The position numbers and the translations under genes are program-made. A stretch of 64,000 nt of DNA from Clostridia bacterium. Lineage in GTDB: Bacteria > Bacillota > Clostridia > TANB77 > CAG-465. Under the pieces are notes generated by a model. It was not told the DNA's origin and did not search any database. It saw only the letters and a list, made by a program, of their open reading frames with translations. The DNA is taken from contig JAZRUV010000008.1 in the NCBI GenBank assembly GCA_045652705.1, positions 24,620 to 88,619 of the forward strand. Direction: 5' to 3'. Below are positions 10,776 to 64,000 of the stretch, piece after piece (within the stretch, counting starts at the first letter, position 1; each line of letters opens with the position of its first letter).

Positions 10776-10791
10776 ACTCTAAACCTCCAGG

Positions 10792-10820: not shown

Positions 10821-10831
10821 GGTAATGTTAA

Positions 10832-11539: not shown

Positions 11540-11557
11540 AGCACTTATTCCTCCAGT

Positions 11558-13042: not shown

Positions 13043-13053
13043 ACTAAGCCTCC

Positions 13054-14085: not shown

Positions 14086-14096
14086 ATATAATCTCC

Positions 14097-14762: not shown

Positions 14763-14817
14763 GTTGACTCCTCCTATAAATTAAATATAATTTTATACTA
14801 ATATAGAGATCGCACAA

Positions 14818-14846
14818 ATTATATCACAGAAACGGTCGAAAAACAA
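14818..14846 (-). promoter_or_regulatory. Promoter of the PP2C-to-kinase operon
   Basis: Minus strand TTGTTT (14841-14846), 17 nt, TATAAT (14818-14823), preceded by TGTGA (perfect TRTGnTATAAT). Confidence 0.5.
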
Positions 14847-14880
14847 TAGTTATGTTGTCTAAAATACCAAAAAGAGCAAG

Positions 14881-14914
14881 AAAAAAGAGCAAAGCATATT
14901 GCTTTGCTCTTTTT
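14881..14914. terminator. Bidirectional terminator after telA
   Basis: Perfect 11-bp stem agagcaaagca / tgctttgctct with a 3-nt loop, flanked by an A-run and a T-run. Confidence 0.75.
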
Positions 14915-14918
14915 GGGA

Positions 14919-40124: not shown

Positions 40125-40604
40125 ATGATTGTTCTAATTCTTGGTTGTGTGCCCTTGCTGTTGGCATTTAGTTGGCATTGGATAGCGGGAGTTGTAGTAA
40201 GCGCAATATGTCTTTTGTTGCTTTTGCTTCCTATAGAAGGTTTTGAAGAAACAGAAAAAGACGACATTGAACTTATAAGATTAAAGAGAGGCAAAAATGA
40301 TCACACCTATTATATTGAGATAATTGGTAAAAACAAGGTTATCTTCGCTTATGATAATAGCGATATGTATGATTTAAATGGCGGAGCCTATGAAGAAGAT
40401 TTTAGAAAAGGTAAGATTAAAGTATATGAATCAAGCGAGTGTGAAGAACCTATTTTAAGAAGCTATACAACTAGACCTTCAAGAGAGTTCTTTACATTTG
40501 CACCGTTTTCTACCAAAAGAGAGTATGTTTTTTATGTGCCTGAAGGAACAGTTATTAATTATCAATACAAACGTTTTGAAACAAATCATGAAGAGGTAGT
40601 ATGA
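40125..40604 (+). CDS. Membrane-anchored hypothetical protein, paralog 1 (159 aa)
   Basis: Two N-terminal hydrophobic helices, then YYIE...FAYDNSDMYDLNGGAYEED...KVYESSECEEPIL...EYVFYVP. TGTGATATAAT -10 at 40067-40077. GGAGGG RBS. Confidence 0.6.
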   Translation: MIVLILGCVPLLLAFSWHWIAGVVVSAICLLLLLLPIEGFEETEKDDIELIRLKRGKNDHTYYIEIIGKNKVIFAYDNSDMYDLNGGAYEEDFRKGKIKVYESSECEEPILRSYTTRPSREFFTFAPFSTKREYVFYVPEGTVINYQYKRFETNHEEVV

Positions 40605-40645
40605 ACTATTTTAAAATGCATAACAAGTATTAGGAGGAATGATTT

Positions 40646-41125
40646 GTGATTACTATACTAATAGGAATTATTTTAATTGTTTATCTAATAAAGAATGCTC
40701 ATAAATTAGATGAAGTACTAATTGCTTTGGGGTGTGTTGTCTCAATAGTAATTATAATTTGCGGTATCCTTGTTCCTATGGCTGGATATACCGAACCTAT
40801 GGTAGAGACTATAGAGCTTATGCCACTTAGATTAGAGCAAGCAACAGATAAAGTATATTACATTAAGGAAAAGGATAACTATTACTATTATGCCTATGAT
40901 AATAGTGAAGAGTATGGTTTGGCAGGAGGAGCATATGAGGAAAGCAGTGTATATAAAGGGTCGACTGTAAAATTGTACGAATCGGAAGAGTGTGTTACAC
41001 CTCTGCTGAAAGTGTTCAAGACCAAATCTAAAGTTTCTTGGTATACGTTTGCAGGTATGTGGGAAGAGGAAGAATATGTATTTTATATTCCTTTAGCCAC
41101 AAAACATGTAGTCGAAGAAGAGTAG
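40646..41125 (+). CDS. Membrane-anchored hypothetical protein, paralog 2 (159 aa)
   Basis: Same architecture and length as paralog 1: YYIKE...YAYDNSEEYGLAGGAYEES...KLYESEECVTPLL...EYVFYIP. GTG start after AGGAGG. Confidence 0.6.
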   Translation: MITILIGIILIVYLIKNAHKLDEVLIALGCVVSIVIIICGILVPMAGYTEPMVETIELMPLRLEQATDKVYYIKEKDNYYYYAYDNSEEYGLAGGAYEESSVYKGSTVKLYESEECVTPLLKVFKTKSKVSWYTFAGMWEEEEYVFYIPLATKHVVEEE

Positions 41126-43958: not shown

Positions 43959-44576
43959 GTGATTTTTATGCTAAAGAAGTGGATTAAAGAGTATATTACT
44001 ATAAATAAAAGGGATATATTGATAGTAGTAGGATTACTTCTTTTGGGGGTTGTCATAGGAATAGGAGTATATGTATTTTCTTCTGAAGAAGTAAAGCAAA
44101 TAGTAATAACAAGTGTTAGACAAGTTTTAGATATTTCTAAAAAGGATACGTATGTAAAAACAAATATAATTAAAAATGGAATAAAAACAAATTTAATAAC
44201 AATATGTTTATTAGCTACACTTTCAGTAATGCTTTTTGGGAAATATGTAATATACTGTTTAACGATTTTAAAGGGTGCTGCGATAGCTGTATATACTCTG
44301 GTCATATTCAATATTTTTGGGGCATTATGGGGTATAGTTGTTACACTTCTTTTAGTAATACTCATAAACATATTATATATACCGGCCTTTATATATCTAG
44401 TAATAAGTTTTTTGGAACTAAACTTTAATATATTTAAGGTAAAGTTAAATGCAAATGGATATGGAGTATATAAATTATTGTTAGCCATTTTTATTTGCTC
44501 AATATTAATGTTTTCGAGTGTAATAGTAGAACAAATTGCCGGTAATGTGGTGCTAAATATATATAGTAAAATGTGA
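43959..44576 (+). CDS. spoIIM: Stage II sporulation protein M
   Basis: ~200-aa polytopic protein. The N-terminus KKWIKEYITINKRDILIVVGLLLLGVVIGI is typical of SpoIIM, and xerD is the expected neighbour. The start is ambiguous (GTG 43959 or ATG 43968). Confidence 0.7.
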   Translation: MIFMLKKWIKEYITINKRDILIVVGLLLLGVVIGIGVYVFSSEEVKQIVITSVRQVLDISKKDTYVKTNIIKNGIKTNLITICLLATLSVMLFGKYVIYCLTILKGAAIAVYTLVIFNIFGALWGIVVTLLLVILINILYIPAFIYLVISFLELNFNIFKVKLNANGYGVYKLLLAIFICSILMFSSVIVEQIAGNVVLNIYSKM

Positions 44577-49753: not shown

Positions 49754-49848
49754 ACATTTGTGTTAACAGCGCTACAAATCAATGATTTCAGTTGACTATT
49801 TAACTAGTTTGTTATATTATTTTCACAGTATTATGGAGGTTTGTACAT

Positions 49849-50961
49849 ATGATAGGAATGAATCAAATAAAGAAAAGATTAATTCATGGAATTTTAATAG
49901 GTCTAGCAATAGGATTAGTATTTGTAATTATTACAATTATAATATCTAACAATATTGTTACGGGATATAAGGAAGGAACAAATAAAACATTTTTAGAAAG
50001 GTATACATCTGATGTTGTAACTTTTACAAGGGATGTTGTTCAAGGTGAAACAATTACACCTGACATGCTTCAAACAACTACAATACACATAAATACAGTT
50101 CCAAGTAATGCATATACTTCAGTTGGGGCGGTAGTTGGTCAGGTAGCAAAGTATAACATAGTAAGAAATTCTACAGTTGTGTCTTCTATGGTATCAGATA
50201 AAATAATATCGCAAGATATGAGAATACAAGAAATAAATGCTGTAGTACTTCCAACTGACCTTATGGTAAATGATTTTATAGATATAAGATTAATGTATCC
50301 AAGTGGTGTTGAATATACAGTGCTTGCTCAAAAGCAAGTTACAAAAATAGTTGGAACAACAATATGGATGGATATGTCTGAAGAAGATACACTTATGCTT
50401 AACAGTGCTATAGTAGATTCGTATTTAACAGATGGAACGAAATTATATGCAGTTAGATATACAGATCCAACTACGCAAATAAAATTAGGGGAGTCAGAAG
50501 CAGCTGCAAGTTCTGCTAGACTATGGCTAAAAGACGAAATAGGAAAAAAGTTAGCACAGTTTAATAGTATTGACGAGGTATATGTGACTGAAAACAGACC
50601 TACAGGTAATGTTAATATATATGGTGAGGCTGAAACAACACCTGTAGCTACTGCAAAAGATAAAATAATAGACATGGTAACAGATTATGCTATAGAGTAT
50701 AGATATTATGTTGAGTCGTTCAATAAAACAAAAGTAACATATCAACCTAATGCTCAAGTAATGGCATATATGAAAAATGAGGATAATTATATCGTTGAAA
50801 AAGCTAAAGAAAGATTAAGTGCTACTGCAAGACAAAATATCGAAAGAAACATTGCGTTATTTGAAAATTCAAATGCTGAAGGATATTCAAATGTAGTTTC
50901 AGGAATAAACACATCAATAACTGCACAACAAACTCTAAGAAATCAGGCGTTAGGACAATAA
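49849..50961 (+). CDS. CpaB/RcpC-like pilus assembly protein (TM + SAF-like domain)
   Basis: N-terminal TM helix LIHGILIGLAIGLVFVIITIII. The segment VVTFTRDVVQGETITPDMLQ...VGQVAKYNIVRNSTVVSSMV resembles the SAF/CpaB N-domain. First gene of the locus. Confidence 0.6.
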   Translation: MIGMNQIKKRLIHGILIGLAIGLVFVIITIIISNNIVTGYKEGTNKTFLERYTSDVVTFTRDVVQGETITPDMLQTTTIHINTVPSNAYTSVGAVVGQVAKYNIVRNSTVVSSMVSDKIISQDMRIQEINAVVLPTDLMVNDFIDIRLMYPSGVEYTVLAQKQVTKIVGTTIWMDMSEEDTLMLNSAIVDSYLTDGTKLYAVRYTDPTTQIKLGESEAAASSARLWLKDEIGKKLAQFNSIDEVYVTENRPTGNVNIYGEAETTPVATAKDKIIDMVTDYAIEYRYYVESFNKTKVTYQPNAQVMAYMKNEDNYIVEKAKERLSATARQNIERNIALFENSNAEGYSNVVSGINTSITAQQTLRNQALGQ

Positions 50962-50975
50962 TTTAGGAGGAACAA

Positions 50976-51701
50976 ATGCAAAAGGTAATAGGTTTAGTAG
51001 GATATGTAAACAAAACAGAATATGTTATAAATCTAGCAAAAGTATTATCAATTACAGGCAAATCAGTGCTTGTAATTGATGGTACTGTTGAAGAACGTTT
51101 AAGATATTCTATACCAGCCTTTAATAATTCAGAGAAAGAATATTTAGTACATTTTGATACAGTAGATTACGCACTAGGTTTTAGAAGTATTGAAAGTATA
51201 AAAGAATATATTTGCAAGAAAACATCTAACGCAGATAACTATGATATTATACTAATAGATATAGATAACGTCAGTGCTTACGAAGATTTCAGACAAGAAA
51301 ATTTTTCCAAGACATTCTTTTTCTTAGAATATTTAAATATTTCAATGGCAAAAAATGAAGAGCTTTTAAAAGCAATAGCAAGCTATGAAGCAGTAGATAG
51401 AAAACCGGTCCTTTCAAGGGTGATATTTAAGCAATATGTAACAAGAGCAAGTGAAAAATATTTTGAAAACAAAATATTAAATTTCCCAATAGAGTGGAAT
51501 GAAGTTGCATATGAACTTCCTTATATGGACCAAGATAAAATTGCGGATATAGAATTTGAACAAAGTGGTTATATAGATATGAATAGACACACTAAAGTGT
51601 ACTTAAATTTAGTAACAGATATGGCGTCAGATATAATTGGAGACGTACAAGCAGGAGATATAAGAAAAATGGTTAAAATGTATACAAGGGGGAGAGCGTA
51701 A
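50976..51701 (+). CDS. ParA/MinD-fold protein with a degenerate P-loop (TadZ/CpaE-like candidate 1)
   Basis: KVIGLVGYVNKTEYVINLAKVLSITGKSVLVIDG aligns to kvIav.s.KGGvGKTT...La..g.kVlliD, with GYVNKTE in place of KGGVGKT. DIILIDID is Walker-B-like. Confidence 0.45.
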   Translation: MQKVIGLVGYVNKTEYVINLAKVLSITGKSVLVIDGTVEERLRYSIPAFNNSEKEYLVHFDTVDYALGFRSIESIKEYICKKTSNADNYDIILIDIDNVSAYEDFRQENFSKTFFFLEYLNISMAKNEELLKAIASYEAVDRKPVLSRVIFKQYVTRASEKYFENKILNFPIEWNEVAYELPYMDQDKIADIEFEQSGYIDMNRHTKVYLNLVTDMASDIIGDVQAGDIRKMVKMYTRGRA

Positions 51702-52507
51702 TGCCAAAGATAGTTTTTTGGAGTCCAGTAGCAACTTCCATAGGGCAAACACACGCTAGTGTGGCAGTAAGTACTTTGATGGCAATAGAAGAAGATTTTT
51801 CAAACATTCTTCTACATGGGCATTGGCAAGCCAAGAAAATAGAGAGTTCCTTTACAGATTATGAGTCTTTAAAGGCTCAAAACGTCTTTAACAGTTCTAG
51901 TATGGGTATTACTGCTTTAGCAAGACTTGTAGAGAGCAATAAATTAACGCCTGAGAGTATTAGGAATTATGCAAAACCAGTTTTGAAACAAAGATTGGAT
52001 GTAATGTATGGCACTAACGTTGCAAGTAGAGAACAATTTAGTCAACTTACAAATAGCTTGTCTATGGTTATTGGGAAAGCAAATGAAACTTATGATTTAG
52101 TATGGGTTGACCTTCCTAAAGGAACAGAAAAGACATATATTACAGATGCTTTAGAAAGTGCGGACTATATAGTATGTACTATAAATCAAGAAGAAGTATT
52201 TTTAGAAGAGGCAATAGAAAAATATCTTGCAAATGATATTATAAAAAAGAAACCAAGAATGTTACTTATGTGTAATTATGAACAAAAATCTAAATATAAT
52301 ATACCAAATATTCGCAGAAAATATGGAATAAAAGAAGCGATACACGCAATACCACATAATTACGTGTTTACGGATGCATGTAATGATGGTTCGGTTATAG
52401 ATTTCTTTTATAAAAATATCGCAGCAGATAAAACTGATTATAATGGCGAATTTATACACGAAATAAGAAGTATAACAAAAACAATATTAGATCATGTAAA
52501 AATATAA
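51701..52507 (+). CDS. ParA/MinD-fold protein with a degenerate P-loop (TadZ/CpaE-like candidate 2)
   Basis: KIVFWSPVATSIGQTHASVAVSTLMA has Gln at the Walker-A Lys position. YDLVWVDLPKG is Walker-B-like. TAATG overlap with the previous gene. Confidence 0.45.
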   Translation: MPKIVFWSPVATSIGQTHASVAVSTLMAIEEDFSNILLHGHWQAKKIESSFTDYESLKAQNVFNSSSMGITALARLVESNKLTPESIRNYAKPVLKQRLDVMYGTNVASREQFSQLTNSLSMVIGKANETYDLVWVDLPKGTEKTYITDALESADYIVCTINQEEVFLEEAIEKYLANDIIKKKPRMLLMCNYEQKSKYNIPNIRRKYGIKEAIHAIPHNYVFTDACNDGSVIDFFYKNIAADKTDYNGEFIHEIRSITKTILDHVKI

Positions 52508-52525
52508 TGTAAGGAGGAAAGAGCT

Positions 52526-54418
52526 TTGTCACTATCATTAATATTGAACTTAATATTAACTTTTGTCATATTAGCAATTGTTGTTGCTGGAATATATTAT
52601 GCCGCAACAAGCAAGAAAGACACAGATTCGGTTGATGAAGTTGAGCGTGAAAGACAACGTTATAGTATCAAAGGAATGACCGAATTTATAAAACATGAAT
52701 TTGATGAAATAACAAGAATGAATTTGTATGATCTTGCTCTTTCTGAAGATGAATTTGAAAGAAGAAAGAATACAAAATATGATTTAAAGAAAGCATTAAA
52801 AGGCGCTGGCTATGCTTCAGCAAACGACAAAAAGTATGTAAAAACTTTAATGTTCGACCTTTTAAGAAACCAATATAAAGTAACAGATAGAAACTTAAAT
52901 TATGCTATACCTTTTGATAATAAAGATAAAATGACAGCACAAGATAAGTTTGATATCTTACTTCACATGTATAAGAAAAAATACAAATCAAATGCTTTAA
53001 ATCAAATAATATCTAAATATAGATTAGATGAACCCAAGTTTGAATTTGACTCAGCGGTTCCTTCGTATGTTATAACACCTCAAGAAATTGAGCATATATA
53101 TGAAGAAGAACTAGCAGGAACAATTATAGATTTTGATGATAAACTAGAAATAGTAGTTCAAAGAATATATCAAGGATATAAAGGATTTAGTGTTATAGAT
53201 GATATACGTGACCAAAACATAGATGGTGTTTCAGGAGGAGTATCAGGTATACCACCGAGCTTCTTAGACCAAGTTGGTGATATGGAAGATTACCTTGACC
53301 AAACAGGAAAACTTAACATACCAATGTCTTATGACTCAATATGGATTTTCTATAAAGGTAAATCGATGTACTTATCTTTCCTATCATTTGGTAGTGAAGC
53401 GGAGCTAAGAAGAGTTTGTCAAAACATATACAAATTTAATAATCCTGGACAATTGTCTGAATCTGTTGGTTACAAAATCAACGAAATGAAAGATGGTTCC
53501 AGAATAGTTGTATTAAGACCAAACTTTGCAGAATCGTGGGCGTTCTTCGTAAGAAAATTTGCACCACCAACATTGATAGATACAGAACAATTATTAGTAC
53601 ATAAAAATAAAGAGCCAGTAATAGAGCTATTAAAATATTTAATAAGAGGAGCTCGTGTTACAGCAATAACAGGTGAACAAGGTTGCGGTAAAACTACACT
53701 TCTTATGGCTATAATGAAATATCTTTATCCAACAATAACGATGCGTGTTCAAGAAACTGCATTCGAACTTCACTTAAGAAAAATTTATCCTAGAAACAAC
53801 ATCTTGTCTTTAAGAGAAACCGATACAATAACAGGTCAAGAAGGTCTTGACGTTCAGAAAAAGACAGATGGTGGTGTTAACATCCTAGGAGAGGTTGCAA
53901 CTGATCCGGTTGCAGCTTGGATGATACAAATGGCGCAGGTTGCATCTAAATTTACATTATTTACACACCACGCAAAAACATTCCCTAACCTAATAACTGC
54001 ATTAAGAAACTCACTTTTAAAAATAGGTATGTTCAATAACGAAGATGTTGCAGAAGTACAGGTTGTAAATGTTATAAACTTTGACGTTCACCTAAAAAGA
54101 GGTGTTGACGGAACAAGATATATAGAAAGAATAACTGAATGTGTTCCAAAAGAGAAAGCATTTAAATACCATGAGGGATATAAAACAGCTAAAAGTATGG
54201 AACACAAATGGGAAGCTTTTATGGATAATGCTACCGAATATTTTAGACACATGACTCAAACTTCAAACTATGATTATCATAATATAGTAGAGTTTAAAGA
54301 CGGTGAATATGTATTTGTACATCAACTTTCCGAAGCTAACGTACAAGCTATGCGTGAAAACATGTCTGATGAAGATATCAAAGCTTTTGATAAATTCTTA
54401 GACACGGCTTGGGGGTGA
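52526..54418 (+). CDS. CpaF/TadA-family secretion ATPase with an N-terminal TM anchor
   Basis: Walker A ITGEQGCGKTTLL, RVQETAFEL (Asp-box position), GGVNILGEVAT (Walker B position) and FTHHAKT (His box). The N-terminus LILNLILTFVILAIVVAGIYY is hydrophobic. TTG start after AAGGAGG. Confidence 0.75.
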   Translation: MSLSLILNLILTFVILAIVVAGIYYAATSKKDTDSVDEVERERQRYSIKGMTEFIKHEFDEITRMNLYDLALSEDEFERRKNTKYDLKKALKGAGYASANDKKYVKTLMFDLLRNQYKVTDRNLNYAIPFDNKDKMTAQDKFDILLHMYKKKYKSNALNQIISKYRLDEPKFEFDSAVPSYVITPQEIEHIYEEELAGTIIDFDDKLEIVVQRIYQGYKGFSVIDDIRDQNIDGVSGGVSGIPPSFLDQVGDMEDYLDQTGKLNIPMSYDSIWIFYKGKSMYLSFLSFGSEAELRRVCQNIYKFNNPGQLSESVGYKINEMKDGSRIVVLRPNFAESWAFFVRKFAPPTLIDTEQLLVHKNKEPVIELLKYLIRGARVTAITGEQGCGKTTLLMAIMKYLYPTITMRVQETAFELHLRKIYPRNNILSLRETDTITGQEGLDVQKKTDGGVNILGEVATDPVAAWMIQMAQVASKFTLFTHHAKTFPNLITALRNSLLKIGMFNNEDVAEVQVVNVINFDVHLKRGVDGTRYIERITECVPKEKAFKYHEGYKTAKSMEHKWEAFMDNATEYFRHMTQTSNYDYHNIVEFKDGEYVFVHQLSEANVQAMRENMSDEDIKAFDKFLDTAWG

Positions 54419-54424
54419 GTATAG

Positions 54425-56494
54425 GTGGCAAGTAATATATGGTATATAGTTGGTGGAATGGTAGGATTTGCTTTTATAGGATTACTTGCTGTTATAATAT
54501 ACTACCAAGCTACCAAGAAAAAATATGCGGGTAATAAAAAGCTTTATCAAAAAGATCAAATAGTTGTAAAAAATAAAACAAGTATTAGAGATATTTTTGA
54601 TAGAATTTATCAAGTAGCATATTTAGCGCTTGTAAAAATCCCAATAATAAAACATTATACTAAAAAGACAAGACTTAAACTGGAAATGGTAAATGATTAT
54701 ACAGAGTATGAAATAAGAAAGAAAACAGGTTCAATAATGTTAGGCTCACTCTTATTTATATTTGCCGCGTTATTTGTTTTCTTGAATGTAGTTTCAGATT
54801 TATATATGGCAGCAGTAGTAACTCTGATGGTATTTGTAATAAATGATGTAATGATTAACTCAAGGGTTAATAAGGTTGCAGATAAAATAATGAGACAATT
54901 ACCAGAAGTGTTTACTGAAATAAGACACTCATTCCATGAACATGGTATGATAGAAGAAGCATTCAACGATGCTATTGAGGAACTTGAAGATAAAGAGATA
55001 ATGCCTCAAATAAGAAAAATACGTGATGCAATACTATCAGATAATCCTGAAGTTCAACTTGAAAAATACTATGACACAGCACCAAATAAATTCTTAAAAT
55101 TATTTGCAGGTGTATCTTATCTTACAATGGAACTTGGAGATAGAGAGGTAAATGGAGTGTCGGTATACTTGAAAAACTTAAACAATATATTAAATGATGT
55201 TTACCTTGAAATTCTAAAAAAAGATAAAATAAACTATATGTTTAGAAGCTTAACGGGAATAGCAATAGCACCAATATTCTTCATACAAATAGTAGAAAAT
55301 TGGGCTATATCTAACTTCCCAGCACTTATAAACTTCTATTCAAGTAGTTTTGGATTTATAGTACAAGCAGTACTCATGATATCAATATTCTTGGCATACT
55401 TCTTGCTTAAAGTAATAAGAGAAGATGCAAATGAGATTAAATTTGATAGAATAGTTACTCAAAAGTGGCAAGATAAGGCGTATAAAATACCTTTAGTTAA
55501 ATTTTTAGTAAATGGATTTATGCCAAGAGAACACACTAAAAAATACCAAATGCTTTCTGATAGGATAAAATCTACAAACTCATTCTTAACAATGCCATGG
55601 TTTTATATAAACAAGTTTATGTATGCAATAGTAGCATTTGTAGCGATGTTTGTTCTACTTATAAACATACATCTAATAGATTTAAATAGTATATATAACG
55701 ATATTAGTGAAGAGTTTATAGGGCTTGGAACGTTGTCTGCAGAAGATCAAAAAGCAGCAGAAGCAATGAATGCCAAGGATAAAGAGATTGTAGACAAATT
55801 GAAAGGTGAGCAAAAGGTAACTAAGGAAGATGTAAAAGCAGAATTAGAAAAACAACAAGGCGGTAAAGTTACAGATACGGACGTAGACAGAGTATTTGAA
55901 AAGATAGAAGGAGTTAAAAACAACTTCTTCAAATTTTGGGAAGTAATTATAGCACTTCTTGCAGCTTGGATAGCATACTTTATTCCAAATATAACGTTAT
56001 TTATTAAAAATAAAATAAGGGCTTTGGAAAAAGAAGATGAAGTAATGCAATTCCAGTCAATAATCTTAATGCTTATGTATATAGAGCGTATAGATGTACA
56101 GACAATACTAGAATGGCTTGAAAGATATTCTTATGCATACAAAGAGCCAATAGCAACAGCATTAAACAACTATGAAGCGGGAGCTTTAGAAGCTTTAGAA
56201 GATTTAAAAGATGCTGTACCACAAAAAGATTTTAAGCGTATAGTAGAAGCATTAATATCTGCCGTTGAAAGAATTCCTATTAAGGACGCTTTCGATGAGC
56301 TAGAAACAGAAAGAAGTTTCCAATACGAAAGAAGGAAAGATACCAATGAAAGAATCATACAAAAGAAAACATCTCTTGGAAAAACAATTGGATTTGCTCC
56401 TTTGATAATATTGGTAGCTGGATATTTTGTAGGACCATTGTTACTTGTAAGTATAATGCAACTTATGACTTACTTCAGTACAATGCAATTCTAA
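54425..56494 (+). CDS. Large polytopic membrane protein, candidate fused TadB/TadC-like platform
   Basis: 689 aa with at least 7 hydrophobic segments separated by large soluble helical regions. It directly follows the ATPase. The assignment rests on position and topology only. Confidence 0.45.
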   Translation: MASNIWYIVGGMVGFAFIGLLAVIIYYQATKKKYAGNKKLYQKDQIVVKNKTSIRDIFDRIYQVAYLALVKIPIIKHYTKKTRLKLEMVNDYTEYEIRKKTGSIMLGSLLFIFAALFVFLNVVSDLYMAAVVTLMVFVINDVMINSRVNKVADKIMRQLPEVFTEIRHSFHEHGMIEEAFNDAIEELEDKEIMPQIRKIRDAILSDNPEVQLEKYYDTAPNKFLKLFAGVSYLTMELGDREVNGVSVYLKNLNNILNDVYLEILKKDKINYMFRSLTGIAIAPIFFIQIVENWAISNFPALINFYSSSFGFIVQAVLMISIFLAYFLLKVIREDANEIKFDRIVTQKWQDKAYKIPLVKFLVNGFMPREHTKKYQMLSDRIKSTNSFLTMPWFYINKFMYAIVAFVAMFVLLINIHLIDLNSIYNDISEEFIGLGTLSAEDQKAAEAMNAKDKEIVDKLKGEQKVTKEDVKAELEKQQGGKVTDTDVDRVFEKIEGVKNNFFKFWEVIIALLAAWIAYFIPNITLFIKNKIRALEKEDEVMQFQSIILMLMYIERIDVQTILEWLERYSYAYKEPIATALNNYEAGALEALEDLKDAVPQKDFKRIVEALISAVERIPIKDAFDELETERSFQYERRKDTNERIIQKKTSLGKTIGFAPLIILVAGYFVGPLLLVSIMQLMTYFSTMQF

Positions 56495-56597
56495 ACAAGG
56501 TTAAAACGCATTAGGCGTTTAACATATATAATGGTTATATCACGTAAAGTGAATAACAATATATTATAATATATTATCTATAAAGGAGGTTAAAAAT

Positions 56598-57149
56598 ATG
56601 GATAATGCACAAAAAGCGATTATGATTGGTGTTGGACTTTTCATTACAATCATAATCATATCTGCAGTACTATTAATAACAAACCTAGGTACTGGTTTAA
56701 TAAGTAATGCTCAAGGACAATTGTCTAACATATCTAAATCATTACAAAACCAAGTAACAGCAGCATACGATGGAAAAACTATGACAGGTGCTGATGTTAT
56801 AGCAGCAGTTCAACAATATGAAAATTCTGAAATGTCTGTAACTATAAATAATGGTTCGCAAGATTACTATTCTGGAAAATATAAAGTACCTACAACAAGC
56901 CTTAGAGTAGAAAAAGAATTAGCTGCTGGCGTAACAGACGGTACAGCTATAGGAAGAGCAAGTTCACATCCAGGTGGCGTATATTTTGCTGGAACATTAA
57001 GCGAATTACAATCTTCCGACAAAACTAATGTTACTCAATTACAAGCAACAACTGGTGGTGGAGTAAGTGCTGTAAAAACATACTATAGCTCTATTGTAAA
57101 AGATGCAACAACAGATACAGTTATAGGAATTGTATTTATGCAAAAATAA
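56598..57149 (+). CDS. Candidate major filament subunit (183 aa) with a pilin-like N-terminal helix
   Basis: MDNAQKAIMIGVGLFITIIIISAVLLITNLGTGLISNAQGQ, then a T/S/G-rich globular part. It has the strongest RBS in the locus (AAAGGAGG) and its own terminator. Confidence 0.5.
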   Translation: MDNAQKAIMIGVGLFITIIIISAVLLITNLGTGLISNAQGQLSNISKSLQNQVTAAYDGKTMTGADVIAAVQQYENSEMSVTINNGSQDYYSGKYKVPTTSLRVEKELAAGVTDGTAIGRASSHPGGVYFAGTLSELQSSDKTNVTQLQATTGGGVSAVKTYYSSIVKDATTDTVIGIVFMQK

Positions 57150-57167
57150 TTTAAAAGTCCAAAACTT

Positions 57168-57199
57168 AAAAGGCATATAATTATGTTGTATGCCTTTTT
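57168..57199 (+). terminator. Terminator/attenuator after the candidate major subunit gene
   Basis: aaaaggcata / tatgcctttt 10-bp stem with an 11-nt loop; the T-run is in the 3' arm. Confidence 0.7.
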
Positions 57200-57331
57200 A
57201 AGTCTATTTTAAGATATGTTAAATTTTAGTTAAAAATTACTAATTATTTATATTAAATTAACAAATAAAAGAAGATTTTTGGGATTAGTTATAATCTTTT
57301 TCTACTTGTTAATTTATGAAAGGAGAAAGCT

Positions 57332-57778
57332 ATGGAAGACTTTAGTATTAGGGCGATAGTTATTGGTGTGTCGTTATTTGTAACAATGCTTACACTTACA
57401 GCTATTTTAATGTATTTTAATACCGCTAGAAGTATTGCAGATGAAGTTAATAAAAGAACAGATATAGCTAGCTCTTATGATTATATTATGAATGCTGATG
57501 TTGTTGATGATGAACTTACTGGGGTAGAAGTACGTTCTCTAATACATAAATATGCATCAAGTGACAGAGTAACAATCAATATAACTATAGTTAATAATGG
57601 CGTAAAAAAAGAATATAGAGATATAAATAATTCTTGGCTAAAAAAAATAAATGACAACGCATATTTAATAAGTGAAGTAGAGCTGGATAAGATAAATACA
57701 GCCTCAAAATACAATGTGAATAAAGTGGAAAACCAAGGCAGAACAATCCTAAATATCAATTCAATTGTGGAAGATTAA
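57332..57778 (+). CDS. Pilin-like protein (148 aa)
   Basis: MEDFSIRAIVIGVSLFVTMLTLTAILMYF shares the N-terminal signature A-I-x-I-G-V-x-L-F-x-T. Confidence 0.45.
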   Translation: MEDFSIRAIVIGVSLFVTMLTLTAILMYFNTARSIADEVNKRTDIASSYDYIMNADVVDDELTGVEVRSLIHKYASSDRVTINITIVNNGVKKEYRDINNSWLKKINDNAYLISEVELDKINTASKYNVNKVENQGRTILNINSIVED

Positions 57779-57790
57779 GGTGAGAAACAA

Positions 57791-59614
57791 ATGGAAGACA
57801 ATATACAAACAATTATTGTAGTTATAATATCTGCATTTCTTCTTTTTATATTTCCTGTATATATGGCTTATGAAAAGAAGGATGATATTTCTTACGCTCT
57901 TGCAATGAGATATACTCAAGACTTAGTAGATGAAGTAAGAAGTAAGGGTTATTTAACTAAAAATATGTATGAAGATTATAGGGCAAAGCTAAAGCTTACA
58001 GGTAATACCTATGATATCCAAATGACACACGAATATAACAGATATGACCCTATAACCAATTATTATAAAGTAGAAAATGAACAATATGTACTTGTAAAGA
58101 CAACCACTCACGAGGATAGAAAAATATATGAACATTCAGTATTAGAGGAAGGAATAGAATTAGGAAAGATTAACGAACAGTCCTCAGAAAAAGAGAAACA
58201 ACGTTATTTAGAAAGTGTATATAAACAAAATGGTATAGATAAGGTGGAAGAAACATATCAACTGTCTAAAGAGGTATATACATCAAATCACATAGTAAAT
58301 GTTTTAAACAGTGAAAGAAAATTACAACTTAATTCAACTTCAGATAATGTTAAGTGTAGTGATGTTTATGATGCAGATGATGGTTGTCAATATGCATACA
58401 TTATGAATGTTGACGACAACTTTAATATAACAATAAAAAATACAAATATAACTTTAGCAACAGTAATATACAATATGGTTACAGCAAATACTTTGGATGA
58501 TAACACGAGAATATATGTAAATTATGGTGGAGCAATTCTTGCAAATAAATGGTATGCAAATGTAGATTATGCTAAAATGAAACATGACAGTTTAAGTTTA
58601 AATAAGTTTACAGAAAAGATAATATTTACTCCAGAAAGACATTTTTACATTACAGTAGAAGGGGGGATTTATCCAACAACAAATAAAGCTGAGGATAATT
58701 CTCCAATAATAAATAGTTGTGATGGGCCATATGTATTAGACTTTGATGTAAAACCTCAAGAGGTAACAGAACTTAAAGAAAAGGGCGCAATTAGAACAGC
58801 GGATTATTCTAGATATAACTTTGCTATAGGAAATGATAAACAATATAACAATGAAAGTATGATGTCAGTAAGTGTTGGAATAAATGGTATTTCTTTAATA
58901 GTAAATGAAACAAAAAATTATAGGGTAAACACATCAAGTTTAGTAAATTTACCATCATATCAAAAGAAAATAGAAAAAACTCGTGTTGTCCAAGAAGAAT
59001 ATGTGTATATAGATGAACAAACGGGAGAAGAAAAAATAGGCTTAAGGGATAAGGTAGAAACATATTTTGAATATATTACAGAGCAAAGAAAAATAACGGA
59101 TTATTCTAAATTGGTATTAAATTATGTTTCAAAAGGAAAGATAAAAGTTACTCTTAGTGGAAAAAGTGGTGTGCCAGCTTTTGAAGAAAATATATTGGTT
59201 ATAGATGATAATAATTTGTTACAAGGGCTAAACAATATAGTAATACAAAATCCAATAGTTAATACATATACAGGAAATATAGGACAAGCAAGTAATAAAA
59301 GAGGAACTAACGTAAATTATAGTATAAATGTAACAGACACTACAATAGGAATTACTGCTGGAAAATATGTTTCGGAAGAACTTACAATTCTTTCATATCC
59401 ATTTACTATTAATGACTATGTAAATGTTAGAATAGAATTGGAACAAAATAAAAACAAAAATTATCAAGCAATACTTTTTGTTGATGATGAAAAAGTGGAT
59501 GAGAGTATTGAAATGGAAACACTTCCAAAGATTAGTGTAATAGGAAAAACATTTATAGGAAATGAAGAAAGATTTTTTGATGGGTATTTAAGAAACATAA
59601 AAATGTATAACTAA
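57791..59614 (+). CDS. Large pilin-like protein (607 aa) with a C-terminal LamG/ConA-like tail
   Basis: N-terminus MEDNIQTIIVVIISAFLLFIFPVYMAYEKKDDISY...VDEVRSKGYL...GNTYDIQ is paralogous to the N-terminus of the ORF at 60541. The C-terminal end FIGNEERFFDGYLRNIKMYN matches the LamG-type ending F.G.i..v.iYN. Confidence 0.5.
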   Translation: MEDNIQTIIVVIISAFLLFIFPVYMAYEKKDDISYALAMRYTQDLVDEVRSKGYLTKNMYEDYRAKLKLTGNTYDIQMTHEYNRYDPITNYYKVENEQYVLVKTTTHEDRKIYEHSVLEEGIELGKINEQSSEKEKQRYLESVYKQNGIDKVEETYQLSKEVYTSNHIVNVLNSERKLQLNSTSDNVKCSDVYDADDGCQYAYIMNVDDNFNITIKNTNITLATVIYNMVTANTLDDNTRIYVNYGGAILANKWYANVDYAKMKHDSLSLNKFTEKIIFTPERHFYITVEGGIYPTTNKAEDNSPIINSCDGPYVLDFDVKPQEVTELKEKGAIRTADYSRYNFAIGNDKQYNNESMMSVSVGINGISLIVNETKNYRVNTSSLVNLPSYQKKIEKTRVVQEEYVYIDEQTGEEKIGLRDKVETYFEYITEQRKITDYSKLVLNYVSKGKIKVTLSGKSGVPAFEENILVIDDNNLLQGLNNIVIQNPIVNTYTGNIGQASNKRGTNVNYSINVTDTTIGITAGKYVSEELTILSYPFTINDYVNVRIELEQNKNKNYQAILFVDDEKVDESIEMETLPKISVIGKTFIGNEERFFDGYLRNIKMYN

Positions 59615-59626
59615 GGTGGTGATTTT

Positions 59627-60067
59627 GTGGATGATATTACAACGAGGACAATTGTTATAGCAGTAAATATATTTATAACTATAACAATAGTGTCATTAGT
59701 AATTATAATGTTTTTTCAAATGCAAGAAATATATGGAATAGTCGCAACAACGGACACGTCAATATATAATAAATTTGACGATATATATTCTATGTATCAT
59801 GGAAAAGCTGAAACTGGTGTAGGCCTCTTAAATACACTTAAGAGATACGAGGAGCAACCAGACGATCAAGTTATAATAACTTATGACAATTACCAAGAAA
59901 TAAGAAGCAAATTAGGAGAAAATGAAAGAGAAGTAGTTAAAATTAAAGAATTAATGACAGAAGGAAAAGACTATAATTTTGAAGATAAATACAGTGTCAC
60001 CGTATCTGATGGTGAGGATGGGACTGTAATAATAGATTTTAATAGAACAGTGCAAGTTAAAAAATAG
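59627..60067 (+). CDS. Pilin-like protein (146 aa)
   Basis: MDDITTRTIVIAVNIFITITIVSLVIIMF. GTG start after AAGGTGG. Confidence 0.45.
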   Translation: MDDITTRTIVIAVNIFITITIVSLVIIMFFQMQEIYGIVATTDTSIYNKFDDIYSMYHGKAETGVGLLNTLKRYEEQPDDQVIITYDNYQEIRSKLGENEREVVKIKELMTEGKDYNFEDKYSVTVSDGEDGTVIIDFNRTVQVKK

Positions 60068-60088
60068 GTTTGAAAGGAGTATAAGCAT

Positions 60089-60523
60089 ATGGAGCAATCA
60101 GCATTTGAAGCTGTAATGACAGGTGTAAATGTATTTGTGTTTATTGTTGCACTTTCAGCGGCAATATTATTAATGTCAAATGTAATTGACATGGTTAATT
60201 TTGCAAATGAGAGAGCTATAACTGGTATGAATGGTACTATTGCTGAAAATGTAGGCGTAGTAAATGATAGAATTTATACTGGGGCTCAAATGCTTACATA
60301 TTATAAAAATCAAATGCAGAGACTTGAATCAGAAAGACAACCACTTGACTATGAATTTAATGTCCGATTAACTGAATTGGGAGATGAATATCCACTTGCA
60401 AGTTATGTACAAACAGAGAGTTTAGAAAACTATATAAACGAGGAGTTTATACTAGAGTACAAAGGTGAAATACAAGGTAAAAAAGTATATATATTTGCCT
60501 TAAGACAAGAAAGCGAAGTATAG
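60089..60523 (+). CDS. Pilin-like protein (144 aa)
   Basis: MEQSAFEAVMTGVNVFVFIVALSAAILLM. AAAGGAG RBS. Confidence 0.45.
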   Translation: MEQSAFEAVMTGVNVFVFIVALSAAILLMSNVIDMVNFANERAITGMNGTIAENVGVVNDRIYTGAQMLTYYKNQMQRLESERQPLDYEFNVRLTELGDEYPLASYVQTESLENYINEEFILEYKGEIQGKKVYIFALRQESEV

Positions 60524-60540
60524 AAAGGTAGAGTAAATGA

Positions 60541-63500
60541 ATGAAAGATAATATAAGCATTATATTTACTGCAATTATTGGTACATTTCTTATAGTACTA
60601 TTGCCATTATATAGCATATTAGATAGACAAGATAGCATGTCATATAATGTTGTTCTTACAGAGACTACAAAATTCGTAGATAATATAAGAAATAATGGTT
60701 TTGTGGATAAGGAAGCATATTACAATTATATATCTGCTTTAGCTAGTACTTCAAATACGTATAAAGTTACACTAGAGGCATATAGAAGAAAGCTAATACG
60801 CCAAACGGATGAATACGGTAATATTATTCCGGATCAATATGTAGAACAAATTGAATTATACAACACTAAAGATATCCTAGAGATATTAGAGGAGGAAAAT
60901 AAGCAAAATATAGACAATGCAAATATAAAAAATAATGTATACTTGTTTAACGAAAATGATGAAATATACGTCAAAGTATATAATACAAATATAACAGCTG
61001 GTAGTCTAATATATAATGTTATAGCGGGTGAATCAAATACTAAAATAATAAATGTAAGTTATGGTGGAATAGTAAATAGAGTTAATTGGGAATTATACGA
61101 TAGACTTCAATCAGAAACAAATCAAGTTCCGGAAGTTGTAATGTCAGTACCTGTTAATGGGGTAAATAATACAAACATAAAGAAATTAACAAAAAATGCA
61201 ATATTGGAAGATATAGACTGTTCAATAGAAAATTTAGACGAATATATTGGAGAAGTTAACATTCAAGAATTATGTGGTGACGAAATATATAGTCTAAGTG
61301 GAGAAGATTATACGTATTTGTATGATTTGGCTATAGAAGAGAACAGAACAATAAGAGTAGCATTAGAGTTAAGAAGATTTGATAGTATTAATACTGGAAG
61401 AAATAATGATGGTGAAGATATATACACTAAGATAGAGCAACTTGATAAATCGGATTTTGAAAATTCAAATAGTATTAGATCAAGTGTGGAATCATACATA
61501 ATAAATAATTTTATACGTCTTAACGGAATGTATGCAGACATTGATTTAAAATTAAGACAAGTTGGTGATTATTATGTCTTTGATATCATACTTACCAATG
61601 TAAGAATGTCAGAGCTTGATTATATTTCTAGTTTTGCCAGTATAACTATCTTACCAGGATTAGGTCAAGATAAAGATAATACGTTGTCGCTCGGTAATGA
61701 AACAGTAGAAATTGAATTAACAGATGCTACAGCGGTTAATGCGGTAACTATATCTATGCCACATATTTGGGATAAAATGATAAAAACAAAAAATCCAACA
61801 GATGCTAGAATATTAGATGGTACAGTTTATGCTAATGAAGATATAGCTTTCATTATATCTTATACAGGTATAAATAATCAAACAGATGAAGATATTATAG
61901 AGGCAATTAGGGAAAATCTAAAAATATATATAAATGAAGCTCAGTATTCAAATTTAGAACTGCTTACTGCAAAAGAATTGAATGACAATTATGGTATAAA
62001 TATAATGACTGATTCAGCAGGACATGTAATTGTAAAATTTAGATATACTGAAGCAAATAACAGTAGATATAACTATATAGAGTTATTAGATGGTTGGATA
62101 GCAACTAATATAGAAGATGTTGTAGACGCAGAACAAAATGAAGAATTATTATTATATGCTAATGGCTCGAGAAGTAGTGAATATGCAGTGTTGCTTGATG
62201 ATTTACCACCACTTGAACCTAGTATTGAACTTGAAGGGGTTGTTGGAGATAATGGATGGTTTACATCAAATGTAACGTTGAATTTGATCTCATCTACATC
62301 AGATACTGTAAGAAAGAGTATTGTGGTAGAGGATGATGATGGAAATAAAACAGTTATACAAAACGAACAACTTGGTGGAAGTGGCGTATATAAAAACACA
62401 GTATCTGTTGAAGGAGCAATTACTATAACAGAACAAGAAACAACAAAATTAAACCTTGAAACGGATGGAGTAAGTTATGCTATAGGCAGTGCGTATGATT
62501 ATGTAGGCAATAAGGTTCAAACTAGTAAAAAACAAATAAAAATAGATAAGACAAAACCTACTACACCTAAAATTGTATTATATGGTGATGAAGGTGAAAA
62601 CGGTTGGTATAAATCTAATGTTAAAATAGAAATAACTCCAGGAACTGATTATATAAGTGGAGTAGATAGGACTACATATACAATAGAAGGCGCAAATAAA
62701 TTAGGGGAGACAGAAGGAACTGCTTATACATTAACTAAAGAGGGGACTAGTACCGTAATAGCGACTACTTATGATAAAGCAGGTAATAAAACGGAAACTA
62801 AAGTAGATGTATATATAGATAAAACCATACCACCTGATGCAACAATTACTGTTATAGAAGGTAAGAAAAATAGCCCAGATAATGAATGGTATTGTTCTAA
62901 CGTTAAGTTAAAAATTAATGTAGATGCCACAGATTCAATATCTGGATTGGGAACATCTAGTTATAGAATAACAGGGAGTAGTGAAGTTCCTACAACAAAA
63001 TTTACCGGAGCAGAGAAGGAAATTATAATCGATACAAATGGTACTCATAATGTTACAGTATATACATATACTCAAGCCGGTAATTTTAAGGAAACAAAAT
63101 ATACAGTAAAGATAGATAAAGATGCGCCAAATGCACCAAGTGTGTCAATAAGTGGAACAAATGGGGAAAATGGTTGGCATACTTCTAATGTTGTAGTTAA
63201 TGTACAATCTAATGGAGACGTAGGAACATCTCAAGAAAAAATAATAACATATGAAATAACCAAAGATGGAATAACAGGAAATGAAATACAAATAGCTGGT
63301 GATGGAAAGATTAATTTGAATGAAGAAGGAGAATATTTACTAAAAATATATTCTAGGGATACTGCTTTAAATAAAGTTGTTGTGGAAAGAGCAGTAAAAA
63401 TAGACAAAACAAATCCTATTCCAGCAGATTTTGCAATAACAGGTAATACAGGTATAGATGATTGGTATATTTCTGACGTAAATATATCGTATACCGGCGG

Positions 63501-64000
63501 TATGGATAGTATAAGTGGTGTACAAAGTATTAATTTGTCTCATGACCAAATAACAGAAAATACAATTGGCACAAAAGTTACATTAACAACCAAAGATTTT
63601 GCGGGACATGAAGTAACAAAACAAGTTATTATAAAACTAGATAAATCTGTGCCGACAGCTCCAGTAATAAAATTCAATGTTGAGCCTAGTGGGGATGGAT
63701 TATTTGGGACACTGCTATATAATCAAGATGTGAGTGTAACAGTTATTCCAGGAAGAGATTATTTTATTGAAGGAATAGATAATTTATACAAAACAACTTT
63801 TGAGATTACAGCTGACAGTGGCAATGAAGTTATATTAGCTGAAACAGAGCAAACAAGCTTTGCTATAACACAAGAGGGAATAATTACAATTACTGCGAGG
63901 ACCTATGACAAAGCTGGAAATGTAACTAAAGCATCAAACGTAATTTGGATAAATAAATCTAAGCCGCAGACCCCTAAAATAATTACCATTAATGGAATAA
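60541..64000 (+). CDS. Giant pilin-anchored adhesin-like protein (>1153 aa, 3' end outside the window; not in ORF track)
   Basis: My hand translation from the ATG at 60541 found no in-frame stop through 64000. N-terminus MKDNISIIFTAIIGTFLIVLLPLYSILDRQDSMSY. From about aa 553 there are tandem ~80-104-aa modules with DK(T/S/D)xP linkers. Confidence 0.7.
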   Translation, partial: MKDNISIIFTAIIGTFLIVLLPLYSILDRQDSMSYNVVLTETTKFVDNIRNNGFVDKEAYYNYISALASTSNTYKVTLEAYRRKLIRQTDEYGNIIPDQYVEQIELYNTKDILEILEEENKQNIDNANIKNNVYLFNENDEIYVKVYNTNITAGSLIYNVIAGESNTKIINVSYGGIVNRVNWELYDRLQSETNQVPEVVMSVPVNGVNNTNIKKLTKNAILEDIDCSIENLDEYIGEVNIQELCGDEIYSLSGEDYTYLYDLAIEENRTIRVALELRRFDSINTGRNNDGEDIYTKIEQLDKSDFENSNSIRSSVESYIINNFIRLNGMYADIDLKLRQVGDYYVFDIILTNVRMSELDYISSFASITILPGLGQDKDNTLSLGNETVEIELTDATAVNAVTISMPHIWDKMIKTKNPTDARILDGTVYANEDIAFIISYTGINNQTDEDIIEAIRENLKIYINEAQYSNLELLTAKELNDNYGINIMTDSAGHVIVKFRYTEANNSRYNYIELLDGWIATNIEDVVDAEQNEELLLYANGSRSSEYAVLLDDLPPLEPSIELEGVVGDNGWFTSNVTLNLISSTSDTVRKSIVVEDDDGNKTVIQNEQLGGSGVYKNTVSVEGAITITEQETTKLNLETDGVSYAIGSAYDYVGNKVQTSKKQIKIDKTKPTTPKIVLYGDEGENGWYKSNVKIEITPGTDYISGVDRTTYTIEGANKLGETEGTAYTLTKEGTSTVIATTYDKAGNKTETKVDVYIDKTIPPDATITVIEGKKNSPDNEWYCSNVKLKINVDATDSISGLGTSSYRITGSSEVPTTKFTGAEKEIIIDTNGTHNVTVYTYTQAGNFKETKYTVKIDKDAPNAPSVSISGTNGENGWHTSNVVVNVQSNGDVGTSQEKIITYEITKDGITGNEIQIAGDGKINLNEEGEYLLKIYSRDTALNKVVVERAVKIDKTNPIPADFAITGNTGIDDWYISDVNISYTGGMDSISGVQSINLSHDQITENTIGTKVTLTTKDFAGHEVTKQVIIKLDKSVPTAPVIKFNVEPSGDGLFGTLLYNQDVSVTVIPGRDYFIEGIDNLYKTTFEITADSGNEVILAETEQTSFAITQEGIITITARTYDKAGNVTKASNVIWINKSKPQTPKIITINGI
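62197..64000 (+). repeat. At least 6 tandem Ig-like/beta-sandwich protein modules in the giant ORF
   Basis: Module starts fall at nt 62197, 62545, 62818, 63115, 63403, 63640 and 63952. Shared signature: DKxxP...G..G.NGW(Y/F/H).SNV.......D..SG.....Y.I.G.....(Y)D.AGN. The copies are divergent at the DNA level. Confidence 0.75.

Follow-up and report, generated by a model that had tools for sequence, protein, structure and literature searches.

The region at 49849-64000 of a 64,000-nucleotide stretch of DNA from a Clostridia bacterium (GCA_045652705.1, contig JAZRUV010000008.1; the whole stretch is called the window below) carries eleven co-oriented, tightly packed open reading frames (ORFs) on the + strand, the last of which is still open where the window ends. 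Our results suggest that these genes probably belong to a distinct lineage of type IV filament systems, related to Tad pili and carried by single-membrane Firmicutes. The reading stands on the homology of four core parts to Tad components, established by sequence comparison, and on their conserved synteny. The system stands near Tad and has a new subunit family, a fused platform, a motor with a predicted N-terminal anchor and a locus that encodes no peptidase.

Type IV filaments play a central part in adhesion, motility, DNA uptake and colonisation, and their classes (the type IVa and type IVb pili, Tad, Com, MSH, the type II secretion system (T2SS) and the archaeal filaments) are treated as essentially complete. 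The module described here is very common, yet its annotation is limited to the motor and sometimes the SAF-domain protein. If it builds a filament, it may serve gut Firmicutes as a major adhesin or colonisation factor.

An earlier note on this DNA, written from the sequence alone, had read the locus as Tad-like, with a CpaB-like protein, two ParA/MinD-fold proteins with ruined P-loops, a CpaF/TadA-like ATPase, a single oversized platform protein and a 183-aa putative major subunit with its own terminator, and had seen in it no Flp pilin, no TadE and no A24 prepilin peptidase. All eleven genes were recovered, and each part assignment in this description was upheld by the comparisons given below, weakly for the first ParA-like protein and moderately for the platform. 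The features are, in order:

49792-49820, + strand: promoter-like site (TTGACT-17-TATTAT) that ends 29 nt short of the first gene and matches 10/12 consensus positions
49849-50961, + strand: CpaB/RcpC homologue, 370 aa, with an N-terminal transmembrane (TM) helix, a SAF domain, an RcpC-like part and a family-specific C-terminal part of ~180 aa
50976-51701, + strand: ParA/MinD-like protein 1, 241 aa, with the degenerate P-loop G-x-x-N-K-T-E; a probable second TadZ-like scaffold
51701-52507, + strand: ParA-like protein 2, 268 aa, with a CpaE/TadZ-type ATPase domain
52526-54418, + strand: motor ATPase of the TadA/CpaF-archaeal group, 630 aa, TTG start
54425-56494, + strand: fused platform protein, 689 aa, GTG start, with 7-9 hydrophobic segments and two T2SSF-like (TadB/TadC-like) halves
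56598-57149, + strand: putative major subunit of family F1, 183 aa, with the start MDNAQKA (a 7-aa polar stretch), a hydrophobic helix and a variable α/β head
57164-57203, + strand: terminator- or attenuator-like hairpin 3' of the 183-aa gene, followed by a U-rich tract
57332-57778, + strand: pilin-like paralogue of family F2, 148 aa, with the start MEDFSIRA and then a hydrophobic helix
57791-59614, + strand: F3-family protein, 607 aa, with an N-terminal helix that bears the motif FPxY...E[KR][KQ]DD[IM]SY and with a large C-terminal extension
59627-60067, + strand: pilin-like paralogue, 146 aa, assigned to F2 by its hidden Markov model (HMM)
60089-60523, + strand: pilin-like paralogue of family F2, 144 aa, with the start MEQSAFEA
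60541-64000, + strand: F3-family giant, >1153 aa, with no stop before the window ends; a putative adhesin

The promoter-like site is a consensus match only, and such sites are no commoner in the region than in shuffled sequence. The hairpin behind the 183-aa gene is real (-18 kcal/mol, z=-4.78, with none of 200 shuffles folding equally well), which fits the terminator proposed earlier; an automated terminator scan did not flag it. The same gene has a strong ribosome-binding site upstream of its ATG. In each of the six proteins encoded downstream of the platform, a few polar residues at the N-terminus precede a hydrophobic helix.

Of 83 related loci from Clostridia and Bacilli, 82 keep the order of the first five genes, and the arrangement is therefore not due to chance. 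It is the order of Tad systems (CpaB-TadZ-TadA-TadB/C-subunits), and it recurs on three Bacilli megaplasmids. The window itself is chromosomal. Among its other genes are valS, those of the S10-spc-alpha ribosomal protein cluster, secY, adk, map, truA and one for a D-Ala-D-Ala carboxypeptidase.

Because Pfam and NCBIfam give almost nothing above cut-off, the locus fails ordinary family assignment. When the proteins of the window were searched with Pfam, the SAF domain of the first protein was the sole match above cut-off in the locus; the ParA-like pair gave sub-threshold matches to AAA_31, CbiA and MipZ, and neither the 689-aa protein nor any protein downstream of it had a Pfam or NCBIfam match. 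In complete plasmid records, PGAP labels the platform and all subunits 'hypothetical protein'. The near-empty result reflects divergence, not missing homology, as comparisons between families made clear. Family alignments were drawn from the 83 related loci and compared by hhalign, with reversed-template decoys as controls, to reference alignments of TadB, TadC, CpaE, CpaB, Flp, TadE and TadV. With just 4-8 reference sequences hhalign was too weak, and the references, which began with four plasmid Tad loci, were therefore enlarged with 80 metagenomic Tad loci.

Searched alone against the PDB with phmmer, the motor finds CpaF (4e-7), and a profile built from 51 diverse members of its family again ranks CpaF first (5e-27, 97 bits), in agreement with the earlier assignment. 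FlaI (2e-15, 59 bits) and Af GspE2 (2e-12, 50 bits) come next, and PilT and VirB11 (6e-10) and GspE and PilB (about 3e-9) are weaker. Pfam T2SSE is matched at E<=0.01 by 46 of the 51 members, while the window's own motor reaches 15.3 bits against a cut-off of 24.9. Its best NCBIfam model, TIGR03819 ('TadA family conjugal transfer-associated ATPase'), gives 26 bits against a cut-off of 373. Standard models do not call the locus an ordinary Tad system. All catalytic motifs of the motor are intact, with G388 and K389 of Walker A, E414 of the Asp box, E456 of Walker B and H482 of the His box invariant in the family, as are the arginines R296, R326 and R343. The match to solved structures starts at about residue 265; the first ~265 residues are family-specific and matched nothing in the PDB, and their hydrophobic helix is read, from sequence and a hydropathy count, as a membrane anchor. 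Homologues of the motor fall into >7,400 clusters at 90% identity, and into 334 clusters at 50% identity when E<1e-30 is required, nearly all of them about 600-650 aa long. A neighbour-joining tree built on 308 core columns recovers the motor family as a clade (100/100) outside that of canonical CpaF, itself monophyletic (100/100); since the Haloferax sequence consisted entirely of gaps in the matrix used, archaeal groupings were disregarded. Core identity between the motor family and CpaF is 21%, as against 35% between CpaF and TrbB/VirB11.

The 689-aa protein is a single gene product of 685-790 aa in all 82 loci, and its position directly after the ATPase fits the role of a T2SSF platform. 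Its T2SSF-like halves lie at about residues 80-336 and 507-687. The N-terminal half (about columns 120-336) matched 65 TadB sequences with a probability of 88-91% (P=1e-6 to 3.4e-6, 196 columns; decoy 0.012). Against 114 TadB and TadC sequences together, the C-terminal half (columns 507-681) gave 83% (P=9e-6, 169 columns) and the N-terminal half (columns 122-329) 72% (P=3.5e-5, 190 columns), each with a decoy of 0.017; the comparison with unrelated CpaE gave P=0.5. Since both halves match TadB or TadB plus TadC above their decoys, we read the protein as a fusion of two T2SSF-like halves and, with moderate confidence, as the equivalent of a fused TadB and TadC, in line with the single oversized platform first proposed. 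The two halves do not detect each other directly (P=0.18). The AF2 model is all-helical (pLDDT 73.5). To our knowledge, few full-length platforms have a solved structure. As a separate observation, residues 167-179 (54923-54961 of the window) carry the motif R-H-x-x-H-E-H-G-M-x-x-E-A, which is invariant or nearly so, lies in the first cytoplasmic domain, inside the stretch aligned to the T2SSF region of TadB, has an unusually high content of His and may bind metal.

For the first protein, a search with the single sequence gave Pfam SAF at 2.3e-7, above cut-off, and TIGR03177 (CpaB) at 2.5e-7 and 30 bits, below the NCBIfam cut-off of 71. The family comparison supports the CpaB-like assignment: 83 sequences aligned with 46 canonical CpaB proteins over 164 columns (19-187) with a probability of 97.6% (P=3.7e-12; decoy P=0.059). 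ParA-like protein 2 matched 66 CpaE sequences over 234 columns of the CpaE ATPase domain (97.4%, P=1.2e-11; decoy 0.09), and it has no N-terminal receiver-like domain. ParA-like protein 1 gave AAA_31 at 2e-4 and CbiA at 2e-3 in Pfam, both below cut-off; its profile matched MinD in the PDB at E=1e-3 over 30 residues, and its comparison with CpaE gave a probability of about 21% (P=1e-3, decoy 0.26), with 205 columns in register. Neither protein has a canonical Walker A, so that the degenerate P-loops of the earlier description are confirmed: protein 1 has 'G-x-x-[ND]-K-[TS]', with G9 and K13 retained, and protein 2 has 'S-I-G-Q-T-H', with no lysine. The CpaE consensus built here already reads KGGvGaT where a GKT Walker A would stand, and for this reason we regard both P-loops as an extreme form of the deviant TadZ-type motif; deviation as such is nothing unusual for a P-loop of TadZ type. 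With no working Walker A predicted, the two proteins are probably scaffolds or positioning factors.

HMMs for Flp, TadE and A24 were built from 80 canonical Tad loci and run against six-frame ORFs of the window and of the 83 related loci with 10-kb flanks (1.75 Mb). The A24/TadV model found 37 proteins in canonical Tad loci as a positive control, and in the window and related loci it gave no match at E<=10; the Flp and TadE models gave none at E<=1. The three plasmid loci, searched with 14-20-kb flanks, were likewise empty for A24 (E<=1), Flp and TadE. The motif G-x4-E[YF] followed by a hydrophobic stretch occurs in no window ORF of >=30 aa, and GxGD[..][KR] in no polytopic ORF of the window and the 83 loci. 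Because the same holds in the 83 related and three plasmid loci, the absences are a property of the family and not of the window.

These searches bear on one alternative, an ordinary Tad (Flp) system in which the genes for the Flp pilin, TadE/F and TadV would have been overlooked or would lie just outside the window. Its gene order and four core homologues are indeed Tad-like, and PGAP labels some orthologues of the ATPase 'Flp pilus assembly complex ATPase component TadA'. Besides the empty searches, the platform is fused and not split, the ATPase clade falls outside canonical CpaF, and the subunits, at 120-210 aa with a globular head, are unlike Flp; we regard this explanation as scarcely credible.

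Four of the downstream proteins, of 183, 148, 146 and 144 aa, form one superfamily, with HMM E-values from 1.4e-41 to 2.1e-15. The first of these values is that of the 183-aa protein with the F1 model; the 148-, 146- and 144-aa proteins score 2.2e-32, 8.9e-31 and 2.1e-15 with the F2 model and 7.8e-13, 1.2e-12 and 8.8e-6 with F1. The F1 and F2 family profiles align over their full length (99.4%, P~2e-21, 134 columns). The start of 115 major-type sequences from 69 loci is M-[DE]-N(100%)-A(98%)-[SQ]-K(88%)-A(100%), with a hydrophobic stretch of about 22 residues behind it. The minor-type start is M-[DE]-[DE]-x(2-6)-[KRE]-A and a hydrophobic stretch. The K-A before the hydrophobic stretch resembles, as a pattern, an archaeal class III signal peptide and not the bacterial G/xxxxE. 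Comparison of 47 homologues of the 183-aa protein shows almost no variation in the first 32 residues and hypervariability, with insertions and deletions, in the rest. The AF2 model of this protein (pLDDT 82.5) consists of a helix of 56 residues (2-57) and a small β-rich α/β head. Type 4 pilins have been defined by a class III signal peptide, in which a short hydrophilic leader precedes ~20 hydrophobic residues of α1N, and by a lollipop fold (PMC10191384); the modelled architecture fits the lollipop. The subunit families share with the Flp and TadE profiles only TM-level similarity (P>=1e-3).

Two further pilin-like proteins were noticed. The window encodes at 34557-35819 (+) a 420-aa protein with the start 'MQNKKA VSLVVLVITIIVMIILAG' and a pilin-like helix, preceded by Ala and not Gly and with no Glu5; its gene sits between map and rpsM in the ribosomal-protein cluster, and the protein has no Pfam match. 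It may be another substrate of any peptidase that recognises K-A in this organism. In one relative (locus L073, 7000-7350), the gene immediately upstream of that for the CpaB-like protein encodes 116 aa and has a prepilin-like start of more canonical form, 'KENG ITLISLVVTIILMMIL', and these lineages therefore also carry G-type pilin-like genes.

The 607-aa protein and the >1153-aa giant share an N-terminal module, helix-FP[LM]Y...ERQDD[ILM]SY, and score 1e-33 and 5.7e-51, respectively, with the F3 HMM. In most loci F3 proteins are about 165-185 aa long; the family is expanded in the window. The 607-aa protein has no Pfam match. In the C-terminal part of the giant, repeated segments with a recurring 'GENGWY.SNV' are visible by eye and have an Ig-like look, and Pfam Big_13 is matched at 2e-3, below cut-off. 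The giant is 45% identical to its 1202-aa orthologue in the close relative GCA_045604405.1, whereas the ATPases of the same pair are 93% identical; the surface proteins diverge much faster than the motor. Such fast evolution of surface parts would fit host or phage pressure.

In the working model that we infer from these parts, the motor would turn or push the platform, extracting the four pilin-like proteins from the membrane by their N-terminal helices, and the extracted subunits would be stacked into a helical filament. The 183-aa protein, as the earlier note had suggested, would be the major subunit, since its gene comes first and the strong hairpin would raise its expression above that of the genes downstream. 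The 148-, 146- and 144-aa paralogues would be minor subunits. The 607-aa and >1153-aa F3 proteins, with a conserved helix and fast-evolving, repeat-rich C-termini, would be adhesins associated with the tip or with the filament. The leader might be cleaved by a peptidase encoded elsewhere, or the 7-residue start might not be removed at all. The likely role of the whole is adhesion or surface colonisation.

The same parts could instead form a Tad-derived envelope machine with no long pilus, either a short pseudopilus-type piston or a device for assembly and anchoring through which large surface proteins are exported or displayed; the F3 giants and, in Bacilli, the DUF5704/SLH proteins would then be cargo, and the small helix proteins membrane-anchored parts and not polymerising pilins. 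Very large, fast-evolving surface proteins are always co-encoded, a peptidase is encoded in none of the loci, and the subunits have neither a canonical processing site nor a head that structurally matches known pilins. The subunits do, on the other hand, show the pattern of polymerising pilins, with a helix of 56 residues that is hydrophobic in its first half, an N-terminus that is conserved, a head that varies, and a first-gene 'major' copy with its own hairpin followed by several minor paralogues, and T2SS-like pseudopili are still filaments of the same superfamily. We consider such a machine unlikely, though it deserves more weight than a misread Tad locus.

Several points weigh against a filament system of this kind. 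A filament has yet to be observed. Type IV filament systems are defined in part by a dedicated prepilin peptidase (PMC10191384), an A24 aspartic protease with two conserved Asp and a GxGD motif, and none was found in or near the 86 loci searched (loci and flanks only); MSH loci do provide a precedent for systems with no peptidase of their own (PMC6668835). The subunits lack Gly-1 and Glu5 and have no pilin match in Pfam or NCBIfam, and Foldseek of the subunit model against the PDB gave no significant match to a solved pilin. The platform rests at HH probabilities of 72-91% and was matched neither by the HMMER profile search of the PDB, nor by Pfam, nor by Foldseek of its model against the PDB. 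We treat both Foldseek negatives as uninformative, since one model is all-helical and the other a long helix with a small head. The alignment that makes ParA-like protein 1 a probable TadZ-like scaffold is weak. Lastly, of the ATPase phylogeny called for by the earlier note, the separate clade outside CpaF stands, but the very long branch and the 21% core identity to CpaF leave the exact placement of the family uncertain.

Comparison with described systems helps to delimit the proposed lineage. With Tad/Flp (type IVc; Caulobacter Cpa, Aggregatibacter Tad) it shares the gene order, an ATPase closest to CpaF and clear CpaB and CpaE homology. It differs in having no Flp pilin, no TadE/F/G with a G/xxxxE leader and no TadV/CpaA; one fused platform, where Tad has separate tadB and tadC genes, each encoding one T2SSF domain; a motor that is extended by about 265 residues, begins with a putative TM helix, scores below family cut-offs and falls in a clade apart; two short TadZ-like proteins with no receiver-like N-domain; and head-bearing subunits of 120-210 aa.

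The Tad locus of a Bacillus cereus pXO1-like plasmid (L171, 3855-12804) represents another Gram-positive variant of Tad; it, too, is secretin-less, belongs to a single-membrane host and combines CpaB, one short ParA-type ATPase and a CpaF-type motor. Unlike the module here, it encodes behind the motor a pair of unfused proteins, of 310 and 288 aa, which match TadB/TadC in size and are annotated 'hypothetical protein', and it has three tandem 68-aa Flp-sized pilins with 'SSENG MLIALAV', in which Gly stands before the hydrophobic stretch and there is no Glu5; the cleavage site is our reading. Its ATPase has 31% core identity to canonical CpaF and 18% to the family described here. This plasmid locus also carries WxL/DUF916 surface proteins.

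Archaeal type IV pili (Epd-like and others) resemble the module in their fused platform of ~700 aa with two T2SSF domains (for example the 701-aa protein of Salinibaculum, L087) and in a subunit leader with no Glu5; the K-A at -2/-1 here fits the archaeal [KR]-[GAS]. On the other side, the hosts here are bacteria, the ATPase prefers CpaF (97 bits) over FlaI (59) or GspE2 (50), CpaB and TadZ homologues are present, Pfam Pilin_N is not matched and no FlaK/PibD-type peptidase is encoded nearby. Tad systems have been proposed to derive from the archaeal type IV pilus group (Denise et al. 2019, PMC6668835). The module bears on this origin, as it joins Tad-specific CpaB, TadZ and a CpaF-like motor to an archaeal-like fused platform and K-A leader. 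Com pili and type IVa pili of monoderms are similar in having an ATPase, a platform and major and minor pilins in a single-membrane cell, and dissimilar in their PilB/ComGA-type ATPases, which the profile here matches at E~1e-8 to 1e-9, far more weakly than CpaF. They also have Pfam-detectable PilC/ComGB platforms, G/FTLxE pilins and ComC/PilD peptidases.

A bolder version of our proposal, which we hold tentatively as a serious possibility falling a little short of an even chance, is that the module constitutes a separate, unclassified type IV filament family spread throughout the Firmicutes, from gut Clostridia chromosomes to soil Bacilli megaplasmids. It would be marked by an M-[DE]-N-A-x-K-A start with no Gly-1 or Glu5, by cleavage through a protease other than a locus-encoded A24 enzyme or by no cleavage, and by a membrane-tethered motor, a fused platform and a catalytically dead TadZ-like pair. 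In that case no bacterial type IV filament before it would have had subunits of archaeal style or independent of a peptidase, and it would form an independent branch near the split between Tad and archaeal systems. The question is thereby raised of whether a prepilin peptidase and Glu5 are universal requirements.

A genome scan found the module in at least 517 species genomes, mostly metagenome-assembled genomes of uncultured Clostridia from human, rabbit, ruminant and chicken guts, with Tumebacillus and Paenibacillus also among the matches. In a tblastn search of plasmids, 34 records cover >=80% of the ATPase query; among the twelve best of them (48-58% identity) there is none but large plasmids of Bacilli, namely of Thermobacillus, Paenibacillus, Alkalihalophilus, Cohnella, Sporosarcina and Cytobacillus. 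Cultured, tractable hosts exist, among them Paenibacillus polymyxa M1 and Alkalihalophilus pseudofirmus OF4. The earlier note had suspected an undescribed branch in Clostridia: we read it as a probable Tad-related branch, and no description was found in the literature searched, but it is not confined to Clostridia, being present also in Bacilli, often on megaplasmids. A phage origin was considered and rejected, as phage records held only three weak partial matches.

Our literature searches returned no description of this module, and the word 'undescribed' depends on that negative result alone. 'New Tad systems' in Bacilli and Clostridia have been reported from profile models (Denise et al. 2019, PMC6668835), and they may include some examples of it; the distinctive parts found here are not described there. 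The tad locus of Bulleidia is a canonical Tad system with TadV and short pilins (PMC12786226).

Downstream of the module on the three megaplasmids, pTHECO01, pBpOF4-01 and pPPM1a, come genes for an SLH or stalk-domain protein, for a DUF5704 protein of ~1,100 aa and for a GGDEF cyclase, joined on two of the three by HD or HD-GYP genes. Two of the plasmids have relaxase or coupling-protein genes at a distance of about 5-13 kb. All proteins of the module other than the SAF protein, the ATPase and one ParA call are annotated there as hypothetical.

The plasmid setting invites a third interpretation, that of an apparatus for mating-pair formation or DNA transfer which belonged to conjugative megaplasmids of Firmicutes before it was domesticated on chromosomes. 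The 34 plasmid records, with large Bacilli plasmids as their twelve best, accord with it, as do two genes of pTHECO01 that lie within about 13 kb of the locus, one coupling-protein-like and one for a replication-relaxation protein, a replication-relaxation protein within about 9 kb on pPPM1a, and the conjugal transfer-associated NCBIfam model that best matches the ATPase, at 26 bits and far below cut-off. The plasmid pPPM1a is also reported to encode a TraG-like protein (PMC4117785). Set against this, a transposase separates the transfer genes from the locus on pTHECO01, MOB-suite types all three plasmids as non-mobilizable, and adhesion is what the co-encoded GGDEF, SLH and adhesin-like genes suggest. 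Both in the window and in its relatives from the gut, the locus lies on the chromosome beside truA and dacB-type genes, and the 64 kb contain no relaxase or coupling protein. Because of this housekeeping context in the gut lineage we judge a conjugation apparatus quite improbable, more so than the envelope machine.

The locus of the proposed filament lineage does not end with the window. In GCA_045604405.1, which is syntenic with the window (truA, a dacB-type gene and then the module) and whose ATPase is the 93%-identical one, the giant gene is followed by genes for proteins of 404, 439 and 1619 aa (continuation at 17352-20519 of the relative's stretch, L173); the locus is thus at least three genes longer than the window, and inspection beyond position 64000, as the earlier note had advised, was rewarded in this relative. 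The 404-aa protein represents a fourth conserved family, with the start MK[IL]T[DH]FA[LI]IF..I.LP.

Elsewhere in the window, reading 43959-44576 as SpoIIM was a guess that Pfam did not confirm. A cluster at 6147-16133 (-), with a GC skew unlike that found elsewhere in the window, contains genes for proteins of 1542, 494, 343, 221 and 404 aa and for a vWA-like one of 235 aa (10832-11539, -) with a 'DCSGSM' motif; no function is obvious for any of them. At 40125-41125 (+) lie genes for two tandem paralogous 159-aa proteins, each with an N-terminal hydrophobic segment and with similar C-terminal domains.

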